DNA of 64,000 nucleotides from NCBI GenBank assembly GCA_963766885.1, contig CAVYBO010000001.1, positions 4,352-68,351 on the forward strand, written 5' to 3'. Positions 10,229-58,421 of this stretch are shown here, one piece after another; within the stretch, counting starts at the first letter, position 1, and each line of letters opens with the position of its first letter. The notes below the pieces were generated by a model, which was not told where the DNA came from, searched no databases, and saw nothing but the letters and a program-made list of their open reading frames with translations. The DNA comes from an uncultured bacterium. Lineage in GTDB: Bacteria; Patescibacteriota; Minisyncoccia; Phycocordibacterales; CAIRYW01. A program made the position numbers and the translations under genes.

Positions 10229-10492
10229 ATGCCAATTACATCATCAGCAAAAAAAGCCATCCGAAACTCTGCAAAGAAGCAGGTTTTTAACATTCGCCGG
10301 AAAAAGGCTGTTGAAAGCACTCTTAAAGAAATCCGAATTCTCATCAAAGAAGGCAAAAAAGAAGAAGCTAAAAAAGCCTTTGTTAAGTTTCAAAAAGCCA
10401 TAGACAAAGCTGCCAAGGAGCATACTCTTTCCAAAAACACTGCATCCAGAAAGAAATCCAGAGTTTCTGCGATGATCAAAAAGGCTAAATAA
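10229..10492 (+). CDS. rpsT: 30S ribosomal protein S20
   Basis: 87 aa basic protein with SAKKAIR/KKAVES... S20 pattern. Confidence 0.8.
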   Translation: MPITSSAKKAIRNSAKKQVFNIRRKKAVESTLKEIRILIKEGKKEEAKKAFVKFQKAIDKAAKEHTLSKNTASRKKSRVSAMIKKAK

Positions 10493-10502
10493 TCTCTTTG
10501 CC

Positions 10503-10574
10503 GCTCCCATCGTTCAATGGATAGGACGCATCCTTGCGGAGGATGCGATGTAGGTTCGATTCCTACTGGGAGCA
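10503..10574 (+). tRNA. tRNA-Arg (anticodon GCG)
   Basis: Manual cloverleaf: acceptor gctccca/tgggagc, anticodon arm catcc-ttGCGga-ggatg, T-arm gtagg-ttcgatt-cctac. Confidence 0.65.
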
Positions 10575-10639
10575 AAATTAAGCGAAGCTTTATTTTCCCC
10601 CAAGTAAAGACACTCACGTGTCTTTCGGGTAGGAATCGA

Positions 10640-10710
10640 AGACCTTTTGAGCATATTTTATGAGCTTGCGAAATAAAATATCCAAAAGGTGTACTGATCC
10701 TGTAAGGATC
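10640..10710 (+). ncRNA. Copy A of a conserved structured intergenic element (long hairpin accttttg...caaaaggt, then gtactg plus small hairpin with tgtaa loop)
   Basis: Three copies in the window (10640, 18565, 58238) with compensatory changes in two stems. Confidence 0.45.
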
Positions 10711-10755
10711 GATATTCCTGCTAGGAAGATTGATTTATTTTGATATAATAAACGA

Positions 10756-11055
10756 ATGAAAAATGGTAGAAAAATTTTTGATACGATTACAAAATCTTGT
10801 TCGGTATTAATGCTTTTAATTGGAATTTCTTATTTTGCAATTACTATAATAGCTCTGTCTATGGTTATTCCTTCATATGGTGATGATGGAGCCAATGCAA
10901 TAATTGCTGCTGTTATTATTTTCTGGGGTTTGGTAGCGGTTGCTCTTAGTTTTACTAAAAAAACAGAAGCAGCTGCTGTGATTATTTTAGGCACTTTAAT
11001 TATTCTAGGTATTAATTATGGGAATAAATATGAAATAATCCCTAATTTATGGTAA
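10756..11055 (+). CDS. Small integral membrane protein
   Basis: 99 aa, three hydrophobic segments. Confidence 0.4.
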   Translation: MKNGRKIFDTITKSCSVLMLLIGISYFAITIIALSMVIPSYGDDGANAIIAAVIIFWGLVAVALSFTKKTEAAAVIILGTLIILGINYGNKYEIIPNLW

Positions 11056-13846: not shown

Positions 13847-13933
13847 TGGGCGGAGGAGGTGGGACTCGAACCCACAAACGCTTTCGCGTTCCAGTTTTCA
13901 AGACTGGTGGAATAACCGTTATCCGACTCCTCC
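13847..13933 (-). tRNA. tRNA-Ser (anticodon TGA), type II with long variable arm, encoded CCA
   Basis: Reverse complement folds: acceptor ggaggag/ctcctcc, anticodon arm ccagt-ctTGAaa-actgg, T-arm gggttcgagtccc, 3' gcca. Confidence 0.8.
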
Positions 13934-14404
13934 ATTTTTATTTTTCAACCAACTTTTTTCCAAAAAATGTTCTTCGTAATGGCAATTGGGACAGATGAGC
14001 TCCAAGTTTTCAAGAATATTATTGTTCCTGTTCTTGTCTTTGTGGTGAATTTGTAATATCTCAAATTTGGCATAATCGCATCTTTCACATCGCTTACCTC
14101 TATCTTCTAGAAGTCTAAGTTTGAGGGCCCTTTGGGATTTTACTTTATCCTTCGGACTATTGATTTTATACTTTATGCCGTCCCTATGAATATTTGCGCA
14201 ACTTCTACCGCATGTCTTTTTGTTGAATTGAGACAAAATCAATTTACCACAGACTAAACAAGGATGTTCCTTTCTGTTTGATTTGCCATAACAAGTCACG
14301 CTACAAAATATGCGACCTTTTTCTATTTCACACGGTCTTCTGTAAATGAGCTTACCACAAACTTGGCAATTTGCATTCGGTTTTCTGGTGTAACTCTCAG
14401 CCAC
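13919..14404 (-). CDS. HNH endonuclease with N-terminal Cys-rich zinc-finger repeats; 3' end overlaps the 5' end of tRNA-Ser
   Basis: HNH motif ...QIHHKDKNRNNNILENLELICPNCH; multiple CxxC pairs. Confidence 0.65.
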   Translation of the reverse strand: MAESYTRKPNANCQVCGKLIYRRPCEIEKGRIFCSVTCYGKSNRKEHPCLVCGKLILSQFNKKTCGRSCANIHRDGIKYKINSPKDKVKSQRALKLRLLEDRGKRCERCDYAKFEILQIHHKDKNRNNNILENLELICPNCHYEEHFLEKSWLKNKNGGVG

Positions 14405-18466: not shown

Positions 18467-18538
18467 GCTTCCGTAGTTCAATGGATAGAACAGAGCTCTT
18501 CTAAGGCTTTGATGTAGGTTCGATTCCTACCGGAAGCA
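18467..18538 (+). tRNA. tRNA-Arg (anticodon TCT)
   Basis: Cloverleaf: acceptor gcttccg/cggaagc, anticodon loop ctTCTaa, T-arm gtagg-ttcgatt-cctac; backbone near-identical to tRNA-Arg(GCG) at 10503. Confidence 0.8.
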
Positions 18539-18564
18539 AAATTAAGCGAAGCTGTATTTTGCGA

Positions 18565-18634
18565 AGACCCTTTGAGCCTAAAATTGAGTTTATGAAAATT
18601 TTAGCCAAAAGGTGTACTGAAACTGTAAGTTTCG
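18565..18634 (+). ncRNA. Copy B of the conserved structured intergenic element
   Basis: accctttg...caaaaggt outer stem, ctaaaatt/aattttag inner stem, gtactg, gaaac-tgtaa-gtttc hairpin. Confidence 0.45.
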
Positions 18635-18746
18635 AATTTTCTACCGGAAACATCTGTTGATGAGATTTTGAGATACAAAAAATTATACTAAATTCCTACT
18701 TTAAGCTAAAATTTAGCTAATAATAACTAAACATTTATATAAATAA

Positions 18747-19358
18747 ATGAGAAAAATTTTACTATCAATAGTTTCTATTCTCCTAATAATTGTAATTGTT
18801 GAGTTTCAATCCTGTAGTTTTATATCAACTTTTTGGTCAAATTTGCTATCGAGCGCTACAATTACGATTCTATTTGGAATCTTCATCGATCAATTTACTG
18901 AACTTACAAAGAAACCTTCATTAAGAATGGTAATAAAACAAGGTAGGTCTTATTCAGATAGAATAGTTCTTACTTGTAGAGAGGATGGAAATTACGAGAC
19001 ATCTTTTAGAATAGCAATCAGAAATGATGGAAATAAAATGCTGAAACCAGCAGAAGGATATTGGCATTTTTACTTACCAAATGCTCAAGACGTTAAACCT
19101 GATGGTGAAGCAGCTAAATTTGTTAGTTCTGATAATGACCATATTCGTAACTGCATTGATTTACCCATTTTTCCGAAATCATTTTTGGATGTAGGACCAG
19201 AATTTAAAATTACTATTCCCAAAGCCGACGTTGAAACATTTAAGGTTTACTATTTTTTTGAGACTAACTACGGTTACTTTCCTAAGACTATATCAATGGA
19301 CCAAAATACAGGTCTTATTGAATTCAATAGAATGACAAAGATTCCTATTAAGTATTAA
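18747..19358 (+). CDS. Membrane-anchored hypothetical protein (first gene of the R-M islet)
   Basis: 203 aa, two N-terminal TM segments. Confidence 0.4.
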   Translation: MRKILLSIVSILLIIVIVEFQSCSFISTFWSNLLSSATITILFGIFIDQFTELTKKPSLRMVIKQGRSYSDRIVLTCREDGNYETSFRIAIRNDGNKMLKPAEGYWHFYLPNAQDVKPDGEAAKFVSSDNDHIRNCIDLPIFPKSFLDVGPEFKITIPKADVETFKVYYFFETNYGYFPKTISMDQNTGLIEFNRMTKIPIKY

Positions 19359-19464
19359 CTAATCAGGAGAAGTATTTCAGCCAATATATAAATTGGTATA
19401 ATGAAAACTGCTTACAATAAGCTCCCTCGCTTTTTTCTGACCTAAAAAATGATAAAATAATATT

Positions 19465-21039
19465 ATGCCTTTAGTATCAATCCCAGAAGCATCTAAATGG
19501 GCAACTGATTATCTTGCCAAAGAAGTGTCGCCAACAAACATTTCTTATCTTGTTCAATATGGCAAGGTTAAAAAGCATGGTGAAAATGGTTCAACTCTTG
19601 TTGATTTGGGTGATCTAAAAAAATATTATGAATCGTATAATGGAAAGCGTGAAATAAGCTGGAAAAAAAATCTTGGTGATGATTTAAACTGGACATTATC
19701 TTTTGATAATCTTCGGGAAAAAGATACAACGAAACATGTTCATAGGCTCCATCCTTACAAAGGAAAATATATTCCTCAACTTGTTGAATATTTTATAGAT
19801 AAACACATTGACGATTTTAAAAAAGAAAAATATTTTAATCCTGGAGACATTATCCTTGATCCATTTTTAGGTTCTGGAACAACAATCATTCAATCACTAG
19901 AAACCGGTCTTCATGCAATTGGTGTTGATGTTTCAGAATTTAATTGCATGATTTCTAGTTGTAAGGCATCGGTTTATGACAATAAATATTTAGAAAATAC
20001 AATCAAGAAAATGCTATTTTCACTTGATACATTCGAGCAGGACAACAAAATTGAAGATTTTGAAAATGAGCTTTTAGCAGAGCTAGCAAAATTTAATGGA
20101 GTACATTTTCCTGGTTATGATTTTAAATACAAAGTTAATCAAGGAAACTTCAATGAAAATAAATTTGCAGTAGAAAAAGAAAAAGAATTTTTACCCGTAT
20201 ATAAAAAATTACTTAAAAAATATTCAATTAAACTGAAACAAGAAAAATCTAATTCTTTTTTAGATATCTGGTTTATGGATAATGTTCGTAAGGAGATAGA
20301 CTATGTATTTGAATCTATTAAGCAAGAAAAAGATGTCAAAACTAGAAAAATCCTTGCTCTTATTTTAAGTCGAACAATTAGATCGTGTCGTGCAACAACT
20401 CATAGCGATTTAGCCACACTAAAAGAACCACAACTTACAACTTATTATTGCTATAAACATAAAAAAATTTGTAAACCTCTTTTTTCAATAAAAACAATGC
20501 TGAATCGTTATGCGTTTGATACTTTAAATCGTATTAAAGAATTTAATAGCTTACGTAAGCCAGTACACTACTCTGTTCTAACTGGAGACTCGAGAACAGT
20601 AAACATCTTTGATAAAATAGAAAAGCAAAATCCAGAATTATCTAAAATTCTTAAGAAGCAAAAAATCGCGGGCATTTTCTGCTCTCCTCCATATGTTGGA
20701 CAGATTGATTATCACGAACAGCACGCTTATGCTTACGATCTTCTAGGATTCAAGCGAAAGGATGAATTAGAAATAGGTCCTCTATATAAAGGACAAGGAT
20801 TAGAAGCAAGACGATCATATGTTCAAGGAATTGCAGATGTATTAAACAACTGTAAGAATTACCTCAAGGATGATTTTGACGTTTTTCTTGTTGCAAATGA
20901 TAAATATAATCTTTATCCAGAAATTGCAGAAAAGTCTGGAATGAAAATTGTAAATAAATTCAAGCGGCCAGTGTTGAATAGAACGGAAAGAGATCGAAAT
21001 CCTTATTCAGAAATAATTTTTCATTTCAAATCAAAATAA
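19465..21039 (+). CDS. DNA methyltransferase (N6-adenine or N4-cytosine family)
   Basis: Motif I ILDPFLGSGTT and motif IV CSPPYVGQIDY separated by a putative TRD. Confidence 0.8.
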   Translation: MPLVSIPEASKWATDYLAKEVSPTNISYLVQYGKVKKHGENGSTLVDLGDLKKYYESYNGKREISWKKNLGDDLNWTLSFDNLREKDTTKHVHRLHPYKGKYIPQLVEYFIDKHIDDFKKEKYFNPGDIILDPFLGSGTTIIQSLETGLHAIGVDVSEFNCMISSCKASVYDNKYLENTIKKMLFSLDTFEQDNKIEDFENELLAELAKFNGVHFPGYDFKYKVNQGNFNENKFAVEKEKEFLPVYKKLLKKYSIKLKQEKSNSFLDIWFMDNVRKEIDYVFESIKQEKDVKTRKILALILSRTIRSCRATTHSDLATLKEPQLTTYYCYKHKKICKPLFSIKTMLNRYAFDTLNRIKEFNSLRKPVHYSVLTGDSRTVNIFDKIEKQNPELSKILKKQKIAGIFCSPPYVGQIDYHEQHAYAYDLLGFKRKDELEIGPLYKGQGLEARRSYVQGIADVLNNCKNYLKDDFDVFLVANDKYNLYPEIAEKSGMKIVNKFKRPVLNRTERDRNPYSEIIFHFKSK

Positions 21040-56997: not shown

Positions 56998-57183
56998 ATG
57001 AGCAAAATAGGCGATTATATAAAGGAATCAAAGACTGAATTGAGCCATGTAAACTGGCCAACGCGGAACCAAACAATGATGTTTTCGGCGTTGGTTATCG
57101 TAATATCTGTTGTTGGGGGGCTTTATCTTGGATTTTTCGATTCAACATTCAAATTACTTATTGAAAAAATCTTAAGCATCTAA
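56998..57183 (+). CDS. secE: Preprotein translocase subunit SecE
   Basis: 61 aa, single C-terminal TM, directly upstream of nusG. Confidence 0.6.
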   Translation: MSKIGDYIKESKTELSHVNWPTRNQTMMFSALVIVISVVGGLYLGFFDSTFKLLIEKILSI

Positions 57184-57186
57184 ATT

Positions 57187-57729
57187 ATGTCAAAACAAGC
57201 AGAAGGAGAAAGAAATTGGTACGCGATCCACACCTACGCAGGTTATGAAAACGCCGTTGCCAAAAACTTGAAGCAAAGAATAGAATCTCTAGGAATGGAA
57301 GACAAAATTTTTAATGTTATCGTGCCTACAGAAAAAAAGATCAAAGTTAAAGCAAACAAAAGAGTGGAGGAAGAAGAAAAAATTTATCCTGGATACGTTT
57401 TGGTGGATATGATTGTGACTGATGATTCTTGGTATGTGGTCAGAAACACTCCGCGCGTTACAGGATTTGTTGGATCAGGAGTTTTTCCAGTGCCGCTTGA
57501 TAAATCAGAAGTAGATGAATTGTTCCGCAGAATGGAAAATTCAACTCCAAAACACAATATTGATTTGGACGTTGATGATGCTGTAACGATTGTTGACGGG
57601 CCTTTCAAGGACTTGGAGGGCAAAGTTGGCGATGTGGACCAAGAAAGAGGCAAGATCAAAGTGCTTGTTTCGATGTTCGGCAGAGAGACGCCAGTTGAAT
57701 TGGACTTTTTGCAAGTCAAAAAGATTTAA
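57187..57729 (+). CDS. nusG: Transcription termination/antitermination factor NusG
   Basis: NGN domain WYAIHTYAGYE; C-terminal KOW GPFKDLEGKV. Confidence 0.85.
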   Translation: MSKQAEGERNWYAIHTYAGYENAVAKNLKQRIESLGMEDKIFNVIVPTEKKIKVKANKRVEEEEKIYPGYVLVDMIVTDDSWYVVRNTPRVTGFVGSGVFPVPLDKSEVDELFRRMENSTPKHNIDLDVDDAVTIVDGPFKDLEGKVGDVDQERGKIKVLVSMFGRETPVELDFLQVKKI

Positions 57730-57802
57730 GATACATTAGTAACGCCCGTCCGTAATAAGGAGCTTCTCGGGCCAGAAAATAAAATAGAATAAACAGAATA
57801 AA

Positions 57803-58225
57803 ATGGCAAAAAAAATAACAAAACAATTAAAACTGATGATTCCTGGAGGCAAAGCCGTGCCTGGACAGCAGCTTGGTCCTGCGCTAGGAAGTGCTGGAAT
57901 CAACATCGGAGAATTCGTAAAAAGATTTAACGACGAAACCAAAACTCGCGTAGGAGAGACTGTACCGACAATCGTAAATGTTTTTGAAGATAGAACTTAC
58001 GCCATGGTCTACAAGACAGAGCCTGCAAGCCAGATGGTCATCAAAGCAATCGGCATTGAAAAAGGCTCTGGAGAAAATACAAAGAAGAAAGTCGGTAAAA
58101 TTTCCAAATTAAAGATCAAAGAAATCGCAGAAAAGAAAATGGTAGACCTGAATGCAAAAGACCTAGCTGGCGCAATAAAGATTATTGAAGGAACTTGTAG
58201 GAGTATGGGCGTCGAAGTGATATAG
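57803..58225 (+). CDS. rplK: 50S ribosomal protein L11
   Basis: L11 N-terminal PGGKA.PGQQLGPALG plus C-terminal domain; 140 aa. Confidence 0.9.
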   Translation: MAKKITKQLKLMIPGGKAVPGQQLGPALGSAGINIGEFVKRFNDETKTRVGETVPTIVNVFEDRTYAMVYKTEPASQMVIKAIGIEKGSGENTKKKVGKISKLKIKEIAEKKMVDLNAKDLAGAIKIIEGTCRSMGVEVI

Positions 58226-58237
58226 ATCACTTTGGCG

Positions 58238-58307
58238 GACCTTTTGAGATATTTTGGAGAACTTTGTTCGAACAAAATATCCAAAAGGTGTACTGCTCCT
58301 GTAAGGA
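58238..58307 (+). ncRNA. Copy C of the conserved structured intergenic element, in the slot where rplA would be expected
   Basis: accttttg/caaaaggt outer stem, atatttt/aaaatat inner stem, gtactg, ctcc-tgtaa-ggag hairpin. Confidence 0.45.
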
Positions 58308-58340
58308 GTTGAGGTGGTAGCGTAAATAAAAAATTGAAAT

Positions 58341-58369
58341 TAAGCCGCGCCCTTCGGGCGCGGCTTTTT
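58341..58369 (+). terminator. Strong rho-independent terminator
   Basis: aagccgcgcccttcgggcgcggctttttt. Confidence 0.75.
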
Positions 58370-58421
58370 TGTTTGACAATTTTTATTTTACAGAATAACC
58401 TGTAAACAAGGAGAATGAATA

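Follow-up and report, generated by a model that had tools for sequence, protein, structure and literature searches.

What is the structured element of some 70 nucleotides (nt) that stands behind both tRNA-Arg genes and behind rplK in a 64,000 nt stretch of contig CAVYBO010000001.1, from an uncultured bacterium of the Patescibacteriota? A preliminary description of this stretch (hereafter, the window) placed three copies at these genes. It argued, from compensatory changes in two stems, that secondary structure is selected in an RNA or a structured DNA element. The sites and stems proved to be as claimed, by sequence, by fold and by covariance model. That account is right but not complete: its 70 nt make up only the core of a larger unit, for which we use the working name gene-end clamp repeat of Paceibacteria. 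Our tentative answer, held with a little less than even confidence, is that the hairpin pair is the conserved core of small (~100–230 nt) insertion elements that lack an open reading frame (ORF) and are multi-copy in genomes of Paceibacteria, a class within the candidate phyla radiation.

The three copies are on the + strand at 10641–10710, 18566–18633 and 58238–58309. They have a common invariant core and the same fold, a long hairpin (P2) and a short hairpin (P3). The 15-mer CCAAAAGGTGTACTG has three exact occurrences in the window (10682, 18605 and 58281), and all other window sites differ from it by at least 3 mismatches. Copy 1 begins 66 nt behind tRNA-Arg(GCG), copy 2 27 nt behind tRNA-Arg(TCT) and copy 3 12 nt behind the rplK stop codon. 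The outer stem is ACCTTTTG/CAAAAGGT. It had been called conserved and is present in all three copies, but copy 2 has one C.A mismatch (ACCCTTTG versus CAAAAGGT); the same position is compensated in a second copy at locus L069 (CCCTTTG/CAAAGGG). For copies 1, 2 and 3, the inner stems are atattttat/ataaaatat, ctaaaatt/aattttag and atatttt/aaaatat, and the stems of the 3′ hairpin are gatcc/ggatc, gaaac/gtttc and ctcc/ggag. The latter hairpin had been given the loop tgtaa. The hairpin stands, but its loop is better drawn as a GUA triloop with a covarying closing pair. The predicted folds have energies of −22.5 kcal/mol (copy 1), −16.0 kcal/mol (copy 2) and −30.7 kcal/mol (copy 3); relative to dinucleotide shuffles, the z-scores are −4.75, −2.74 and −5.39 in the same order.

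We scanned 185,579 species genomes with the two-part pattern GACCYTTTG-N(22–52)-CAAAAGGTGTACTG. This genome-wide search, which the preliminary description had proposed, found at least 119 loci with the same core. All listed matches are in genomes of Patescibacteria, Paceibacteria (Parcubacteria/OD1); the named carriers among the matches listed are Kaiser-, Taylor-, Nomura-, Zambryski-, Vogel- and Yonathbacteria, and Paceibacterota. In a structure alignment of 101 distinct copies, P2 and P3 are paired in 91.2% of cells, compared with 75.0 ± 0.6% in column shuffles. Two-sided changes number 343, compared with 95 ± 8 after shuffling. The covariation score is 0.386, compared with 0.104 for shuffles and at most 0.123 for slid controls. 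Thus, the inner stem and the 3′ hairpin do covary, and pairing and covariation far above the controls bear out selection on secondary structure. P3 is a stem of 5–6 base pairs (bp), with a GUA triloop in 104 of 117 copies. The covariance model, which was built from the same alignment, recovers exactly three sites in the window, the three copies, with 82.3, 76.5 and 68.8 bits (E ~1e-17 to 1e-14). The next scores are the antisense strands of the same copies (19.7 and 17.5 bits), and then noise of at most 11.5 bits.

The two strands are not equivalent. The + strand, that is the sense of the upstream gene, is the more stable of the two in 104 of 118 copies (Wilcoxon p = 3e-18). There are 76 G.U pairs on the + strand versus 25 on the − strand; within P3, 38 G.U pairs stand against 5 A.C. 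The element is always co-oriented with the upstream gene. Taken together, the strand bias, the G.U excess, the co-orientation and the rplK position, between stop codon and terminator, indicate that a single-stranded + form is under selection, most simply as RNA of a trailer or 3′ untranslated region (UTR).

Consistent with the earlier statement that the element is no known RNA family, a scan of the whole window with Rfam 15 gave only tRNA at the gathering threshold. At E up to 10, positions 10480–10780 produced only chance-level C/D-snoRNA matches (15 bits, compared with thresholds of 43–50). At E up to 1, seven further loci had no match overlapping the elements (only tRNA, rRNA and chance matches). 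The element is absent from Rfam 15 and from the searchable literature; the closest paper describes group I introns in Patescibacteria tRNA genes, which are anticodon-loop introns of another size and class (PMC13011429). Among viral contigs, the 15-mer alone occurs at 51 loci, a count within our estimate of chance for an exact 15-mer in a collection of that size. The two-part pattern is complete at none of them, and nothing links the element to phages.

The surroundings of the core define the larger unit. Each copy is flanked on its 5′ side by the intact end of a gene, S(up), and on its 3′ side by a displaced duplicate of that end, S(down). In tRNA genes, the end in question runs from T-loop to 3′ terminus; in protein genes, it comprises the final codons with the stop codon. 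About half of the copies at the (at least 119) loci are 27–300 nt behind a co-oriented tRNA gene, which may be of any identity. Here, the sequence directly 3′ of P3 repeats the upstream tRNA from T-loop to discriminator, and has the T-loop consensus GGTTC/GA(T)TCC. Exact repeats of 18–47 nt are found in L025, L031, L036, L037, L052, L066, L074, L083 and L094, relative to which the repeats in the window are decayed. Across loci, the gene-end repeat exceeds the 99th percentile of a mismatched-partner control in 27 of 109 cases. Duplications vary between 12 and 47 nt, and end at the tRNA discriminator or the stop codon.

The duplicate is matched by antisense sequence. The bases just 5′ of the core, arm S′, are the reverse complement of the same tRNA segment (e.g. 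...GGGAATCGAA). P3 takes its 3′ strand from the first bases of the duplicate, and its 5′ strand is likewise antisense to the gene end, so that two antisense arms hold the duplicate. With its closing helix P1, the unit is a three-way junction of P1, P2 and P3, as folding of copy 1 predicts. Two strands join the helices: AA, which is variable and not conserved at protein-gene loci, and RUACU. P1 has a median length of 9 bp (46 loci); pairing each arm with the duplicate of another locus reduces the median to 5 bp (p = 1.6e-10).

Protein genes have the same layout: rplK (9 loci including the window), rplL, rpsI, ftsZ, lepA, topA, ddl, hisS and others. At rplK, arrangements like copy 3 are found in L005, L010, L011, L026, L047, L062, L101, L114, L212 and L236. 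The duplicate comprises the last 4–12 codons and the stop codon, and the arm begins 0–10 nt past the stop. At such loci S′ can pair with S(up), almost purely by Watson–Crick pairs, or with S(down), with many G.U pairs (2 versus 5 G.U in copy 3). The ends of rplK, rplL and topA contain, by eye, GGTCGA or GTCAAGA strings similar to the T-loop. A different arrangement was seen in L087, L118 and L017, where the element is upstream of an intact tRNA (Arg-CCT or Glu). The duplicate in front of the element is a 5′ part of the tRNA, truncated within the anticodon loop, and the direct repeats measure 35–70 nt. Hence, insertions with a 5′ duplication exist too.

Presence of the unit varies between orthologous sites. 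Among 78 metagenomic relatives of rplK (54–83% identity), only L212, with two copies, and L236 have the core according to the covariance model. A second core type is present instead in L234 and L226; in the remainder, the stop codon leads directly to a terminator or the next gene. Similarly, five of the seven tRNA genes in the window have no element, and the same identities (His-GTG, Val-TAC, Leu-GAG and Ser-TGA) bear one in other genomes. Units also accumulate. The array at L212 reads rplK, S1, S1′, core, S2, S2′, core, S3, S3′, second core type, S4, terminator; tandem units with successive copies of the gene end also occur in L101, L117, L026, L069 and L010. In 68 of 114 distinct copies the core is nested in a larger composite element, with GGUGAG-hairpin-GCAA upstream, an extra hairpin and GUGAC downstream, and distant S′/S flanks of its own. 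L021, L036 and L102 each have two different terminators, one before S′ and the other after S(down), which suggests that the inserted DNA brought along a gene end and its terminator.

No protein family is linked to the elements. We clustered 820 ORFs from 119 flanks of up to 8 kb and obtained housekeeping clusters only; the largest, at 11 of 119 loci, looks like a translation factor. No copy carries an ORF, and no autonomous version, with 5′ and 3′ core halves around an ORF, was found. Apparent orphan 3′ half-cores belong to complete cores of variant sequence; the apparent 5′ ones are background matches to an 11-mer searched with 2 mismatches allowed.

We favour the view, with slightly more doubt than belief, that the unit is a non-autonomous mobile element. 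Its single-stranded + form, most likely a co-transcribed RNA, would be selected; T-loop-like sequences would be its targets, and the host gene would remain whole. A mobile element, rather than a conserved part of the host gene, is indicated by the high copy number, by gain and loss between orthologous sites, by arrays and nesting, and by duplications that preserve the gene. The covariation, the strand bias and a G.U-rich P1 argue that a folded single strand is selected. Anatomy, covariation, strand bias, duplication, insertion polymorphism, arrays and absence of linked genes were observed directly; from them we infer that the unit is transcribed together with the upstream gene, that it is mobile, that it chooses targets by base pairing and that it spreads by recombination.

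Such an element might work as follows. In full, and in the direction of the upstream gene, the unit reads S(up), a short or long spacer, S′, P2, the RUACU junction, P3 with its GUA triloop, S(down) and the original downstream sequence. The single-stranded + form would fold into the three-way junction, with the duplicate clamped by the two element arms; alternatively, S′ could fold back onto the real gene end. As a selfish element, it would use base pairing to recognise T-loop-like sequence (GGTTCGA) at the 3′ end of strongly conserved genes. Since the gene end is duplicated, the host gene would stay intact and insertions would be tolerated. The conserved gene and S(down) could then serve as homology arms, by which the unit would reach the corresponding gene of other genomes and give rise to tandem arrays. 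The base of P2, the bulged A, RUACU and the GUA loop may be recognition features for a mobilising activity, either a trans-acting protein or the RNA itself. On paper, we also considered target-primed reverse transcription, hairpin-capped breaks, fold-back synthesis and tRNA-primer-like copying as routes of insertion; for each, the order S, S′, core, short antisense, GUA, S needs extra assumptions.

Several points weigh against mobility. The 119 flanks contain no linked transposase, integrase or reverse transcriptase and no ORF-carrying copy, and mobility is read from distribution alone. The arms match 9–21 nt of each particular gene end (up to 19–21 nt of their own tRNA in L116 and L021), so that a mobile unit would need them re-specified at each new target. 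An inner-stem subfamily (CCUAAAAUUGA...) occurs at different tRNA genes in different genomes. The core is nearly invariant over a class-level clade, and a tRNA-Arg(GCG) copy occurs in four genomes (the window, L004, L037 and L072); both would also fit a vertically inherited host function. The base of P2 is GACCTTTTG ... CAAAAGGTG in all aligned copies, an invariance that is partly by construction, since only loci with an exact outer stem and GTACTG could match the scan pattern. Pairing is kept in variants that came up by chance: CCCTTTG/CAAAGGG (L069), ACCTTG/CAAGGT (L024 and L069), CTTTTC/GAAAAG with ATACTG (L101), and ATACTG (L212). Finally, many tRNA loci have a strong terminator between tRNA and element, and co-transcription there is doubtful.

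The three window copies illustrate the unit in different states; all features are on the + strand. Copy 1 belongs to tRNA-Arg(GCG) (10503–10574, called by ARAGORN and the Rfam tRNA model), whose S(up) runs from the T-arm to the 3′ end (~10549–10574). A purine-rich 22 nt trailer, AAATTAAGCGAAGCTTTATTTT (10575–10596), is identical to that of copy 2 at 21 of 22 positions. In the predicted fold of 10596–10732, an extra 8 bp hairpin, AAAGACAC-TCAC-GTGTCTTT (10606–10625), lies 5′ of the antisense arm; it has counterparts in L004, L015, L036, L053 and L074. Arm S′, GGGTAGGAATCG, which is complementary to the T-loop and the 3′ strand of the T-stem of the tRNA, occupies 10627–10640 together with the junction AA. 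In the minimum-energy fold, S′ pairs with 10711–10724 and so closes the three-way junction. P2 (10641–10690) has the outer stem ACCUUUUG/CAAAAGGU, a bulged A (A10650), and a variable inner stem and loop. The stretch 10691–10710 holds junction GUACU (10691–10695) and P3 (10696–10710; GUA triloop 10702–10704). S(down), at 10706–10728, is a degenerate sense duplicate of the tRNA from T-loop to acceptor 3′ end; its first bases double as the 3′ strand of P3, and S′ clamps it in the predicted fold. The repeat aligns 10549–10571 with 10701–10726, and 20 of 500 shuffles score equally well.

Copy 2 follows tRNA-Arg(TCT) (18467–18538; ARAGORN and Rfam tRNA). The conserved trailer (18539–18560) and a short junction, GCGAA, fill 18539–18565. 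Little or nothing is left of the antisense arm; folding predicts no stable closing helix, and the best P1 is 5 bp. P2 (18566–18613), with the C.A mismatch in its outer stem, precedes junction GUACU and P3 (together 18614–18633, with P3 at 18619–18633 and the GUA triloop at 18625–18627). S(down), GTTTCGAATTTTCTACCGGAAACA (18629–18652), duplicates the tRNA from T-loop to 3′ end. The repeat aligns with 18513–18538, and none of 500 shuffles scores equally well.

Copy 3 follows an ORF (57803–58225) that matches Ribosomal_L11, and is hence rplK, in a secE-nusG-rplK row. S(up) is the final five codons and stop, GGC GTC GAA GTG ATA TAG (58208–58225), and S′ is ATCACTTTGGCG (58226–58237). This arm could form a 12 bp hairpin with S(up) or an 11 bp helix, including 5 G.U pairs, with S(down). 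The minimum-energy fold contains the former, with 58210–58221 paired to 58226–58237. P2 is at 58238–58289; junction GUACU and P3 occupy 58290–58309 (P3 58295–58309; GUA triloop 58301–58303). S(down), GGA GTT GAG GTG GTA GCG TAA (58305–58325), duplicates the rplK end in diverged form and translates as G V E V V A stop. Plain local alignment of the flanks is not significant (122 of 500 shuffles score as well), and the repeat becomes clear once read by codon and set beside other rplK loci. An intrinsic terminator of the secE-nusG-rplK unit, an 11 bp GC-rich stem followed by a T run, lies 3′ of the element (58342–58372). Hence, copy 3 is inside the rplK 3′ UTR.

Could the unit instead serve the host? 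It might be a cis-acting RNA module for 3′-end formation or stability, folded as a hairpin over the gene end or as a tRNA-like three-way junction, which we consider unlikely but the best of the alternatives. A host RNase (P, Z or III) would cut the element, or the element would block 3′ exonucleases, so defining or protecting the 3′ end of the tRNA or mRNA. The constant co-orientation with the upstream gene, the place of copy 3 in a 3′ UTR ahead of the terminator, and the G.U pairs and strand bias, which fit RNA, all agree with such a role. So does the near-perfect 7–12 bp hairpin that S(up) and S′ form over the stop codon at protein genes, which dominates the predicted fold. The junction dimensions also recall a tRNA without a D-arm: P1 would correspond to the acceptor stem, followed by a 2 nt linker, one long arm, a 5 nt linker and P3 as the T arm. 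Yet ARAGORN and the Rfam tRNA model do not recognise it. Moreover, the element is missing from ~95% of related rplK loci and from five of the seven window tRNAs, is often behind a strong terminator, and forms arrays of 2–4 units with decaying duplicates, which are unexpected for a processing signal. A DNA-level recombination site is rather improbable. Here, an unlinked recombinase (integron-integrase-like, Xer-like or HUH) would recognise a hairpin of single-stranded + DNA, and insert or exchange DNA at gene ends. P2 does parallel attC in its conserved outer stem, bulged base, variable inner stem conserved in structure only and strand bias; units accrete in tandem at one site, and different restriction-modification genes stand behind the copy 2 locus in another sample. 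Conversely, the sequence has no attC R-box consensus (RYYYAAC/GTTRRRY), there is no gene-cassette arrangement, no recombinase gene recurs in the 119 flanks, and the 5 G.U pairs in P1 of copy 3 suit RNA better than DNA.

Two further readings dispense with a protein. Marginally less probable than a recombination site is a protein-independent, RNA-guided mobile element (a mini-intron or ribozyme). Its antisense arms and a 55 nt catalytic or recognition core would choose T-loop-like sites, and a templated step would copy the target both ways and regenerate guide and target with each insertion. A small catalytic RNA that cleaves itself, ligates or splices is less probable again. Its arms would bind the gene end as substrate and it would cut or join at the P3/P1 junction, excising the unit or reverse-inserting it into T-loop-like sites. 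A three-way junction with two substrate-binding arms around a conserved core has the hammerhead-type topology, no protein is linked, and S′ can pair with either copy of S, as a guide sequence would with two exons. Against this, no Rfam ribozyme or intron model matches, the most conserved part is a helix rather than the junction nucleotides, the 5′ junction (AA) is unconserved at protein-gene loci, and splicing would be unnecessary, since S(up) already completes the gene; the present analysis holds no positive evidence for catalysis. Least probable of all, by a small margin, are scars of classical integrase-mediated integration at the 3′ ends of tRNA and conserved genes. The units would be attL/attR remnants, or tiny cis-mobilisable elements after loss of cargo, and their hairpins former binding regions of the integrase or accessory proteins. 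Tyrosine integrases of integrative conjugative and mobilisable elements (ICE/IME) prefer sites such as rplL, rpsI and tRNA genes, with which the targets agree; the direct repeats span T-loop to tRNA 3′ end and the arrays resemble accretion. However, independent deletion scars would not leave a covarying core of 55–70 nt in more than 100 loci and many genera, neither integrase genes nor their remnants recur beside the units, and the antisense target copy has no place in integrase models.

Known systems share some of these properties. Like REP/BIME, ERIC and Correia elements, Rickettsia palindromic elements and MITEs, the units are short, ORF-less, multi-copy hairpins at gene ends. Also like such bacterial intergenic structured repeats (REP/BIME, ERIC, Correia, MITEs), they would be co-transcribed, and their presence varies between genomes. 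Multiplicity (three copies in 64 kb, at least 119 loci) and presence or absence at orthologous sites (2 of 78 rplK relatives) are as expected of that class. In REP/MITE-type repeats, however, the terminal inverted repeats are fixed, and so are the short target duplications. The inverted repeat that flanks the core here differs at each locus and consists of host gene sequence, and a duplication of 12–47 nt restores the gene end. The preliminary description had itself allowed for a known REP/MITE family with terminal inverted repeats; the flanking inverted repeats differ per locus and no known family matches. The element departs from this type in that there are neither sequence-conserved terminal inverted repeats (swapped arms pair over a median of 5 bp, true partners over 9 bp) nor duplications of fixed length. 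Integrative elements at the 3′ ends of tRNA, tmRNA and conserved genes use the same sites (T-loop to 3′ end; rplL, rpsI and rplK 3′ ends), accrete in tandem, and keep the gene intact by a direct repeat. In agreement, direct repeats over the tRNA or gene 3′ end stand on both sides of the insert. The unit differs in its size (100–230 nt), in its lack of integrase or cargo, and in having a covarying hairpin core and an antisense target copy; no integrase recurs in the 119 flanks of up to 8 kb, and no separated half-sites enclose an ORF.

The element resembles integron attC sites in forming, from one strand, a hairpin whose basal stem is conserved, whose inner stem keeps only its structure, and which contains an extrahelical base, varies in length and shows strand bias. 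Unlike attC, the element has no R′/R″ consensus, cassette arrays or integron integrase, and has extra helices, P1 and P3, built from the target. We rejected attC because the P2 base misfits RYYYAAC ... GTTRRRY and the hosts are tRNA and housekeeping genes. As in group I (P1/P10 internal guide sequence) and group II introns (exon- and intron-binding sites, EBS/IBS), an element-borne antisense segment can pair with flanking host sequence on either side. The hosts, tRNA and housekeeping genes in a phylum rich in introns, add to the likeness. The element is far smaller than such introns, has no recognisable catalytic core and duplicates host sequence. RF00028 gave no match at E up to 1 in loci with the 230 nt composite form, and units are 100–230 nt; a group I intron was rejected. 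Hammerhead-type ribozymes and tRNA-like 3′ structures (mascRNA) also have a three-way junction of similar size, in which two arms hold one strand, and lie at RNA 3′ ends. Against a hammerhead ribozyme, the core CUGANGA...GAAA is absent, the junctions are AA (variable) and RUACU, and there is no Rfam match. Against a tRNA or tRNA-like gene, ARAGORN and RF00005 call only the upstream tRNAs, P3 has a GUA triloop and not a 7 nt T-loop, and there is no D-loop. Nor is the element an intrinsic terminator; a terminator scan calls nothing inside the three copies, and that at 58342–58372 is separate and behind copy 3. A TIGR-Tas tigRNA, with features as described in bioRxiv 10.64898/2026.09.09.750476, was also rejected. 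Box C is absent, CUGA occurs only where the variable base after CUG is A, the variable segments are all paired, and no neighbour gene recurs. A retron non-coding RNA was rejected, as no ORF recurs beside copies (119 flanks) and the window neighbours include no reverse transcriptase.

Other observations concern variation of the unit. The two tRNA-Arg trailers (10575–10596 and 18539–18560) are nearly identical over 22 nt, with the sequence AAATTAAGCGAAGCT[T/G]TATTTT, and purine-rich trailers (GAACGnAGTGA, GCGAAG) lie between tRNA and element in L004, L015, L037, L074, L084 and L093. The trailer may belong to the unit. Tips of P2 often read UGAGC-loop-GCGAA (e.g. 10661–10673; L014, L052 and L086), a tandem G.A/A.G motif closing a 2 bp stem; the motif is optional, and short versions exist without it. 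A second, ‘type B’ core occurs in L117, L026, L114, L212 (~2085–2200), L234 and L226, with the same antisense and sense gene-end flanks around an unrelated core. It consists of two hairpins, one with a CAGCAG-type loop, and a GUGAC end, and often shares arrays with the type A core described above. None was found in the window. In L173, L175 and L210, type-B-like cores in reverse orientation lie in long perfect hairpins (arms of 15–22 bp) just past the rplK terminator, with inverted flanks and no obvious upstream direct copy.

Genes beside the three window copies encode rpsT, a bPH_2-domain protein, a methylase, DHFR and a PIF1-like helicase; no mobile-element genes were found to adjoin them. 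The window tRNA-Arg has anticodon GCG rather than ACG, likewise in L004, L037 and L072. CCA is not encoded in six of the seven window tRNA genes, both tRNA-Arg included; tRNA-Ser (13847–13934, − strand) ends ...CCGCCCA according to ARAGORN. At 56998–58372, secE-nusG-rplK has no rplA behind it; the terminator comes next, and then unrelated genes. The missing rplA fits Parcubacteria lineages that lack L1.

Exact-protein look-ups for strain variants returned only fragments of the same genome and one further contig (Logan, ERR11571140). Of the fragments, which are short-read contigs, L252 starts at ~10683 inside copy 1 and L253 ends near 18493 inside tRNA-Arg(TCT). Repeats of the element probably break short-read assemblies, as with L252 and L253, which end inside or beside units. 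Compared by proteins with window 18653–21039, the ERR11571140 contig has identical upstream proteins (192 and 106 amino acids). Behind the tRNA-Arg(TCT) locus, it has Vsr and C5-methylases, versus a hypothetical protein and an N4/N6-methylase in the window. This strain-variable restriction-modification region starts ~240 nt past the 106 amino acid gene, which in the window is just past the element.

Paceibacteria have minimal genomes and rank among the most abundant of uncultured bacteria. In genomes so streamlined, a strongly structured family with many copies and no ORF, outside Rfam and the searchable literature, is unexpected. What is new here is the family itself; its kind, the small structured non-autonomous repeat, is already known. 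The units create pseudo-tRNA 3′ halves and pseudo-gene ends, and mark sites where the neighbouring gene content varies between strains. Arms that are antisense to the host gene's own 3′ end, and that clamp its duplicate, point to target recognition by base pairing with no linked protein. Proof of such recognition, if obtained, would reveal a new means by which small elements move without harm. A mobile element guided by RNA and independent of protein would, if true, be categorically new.

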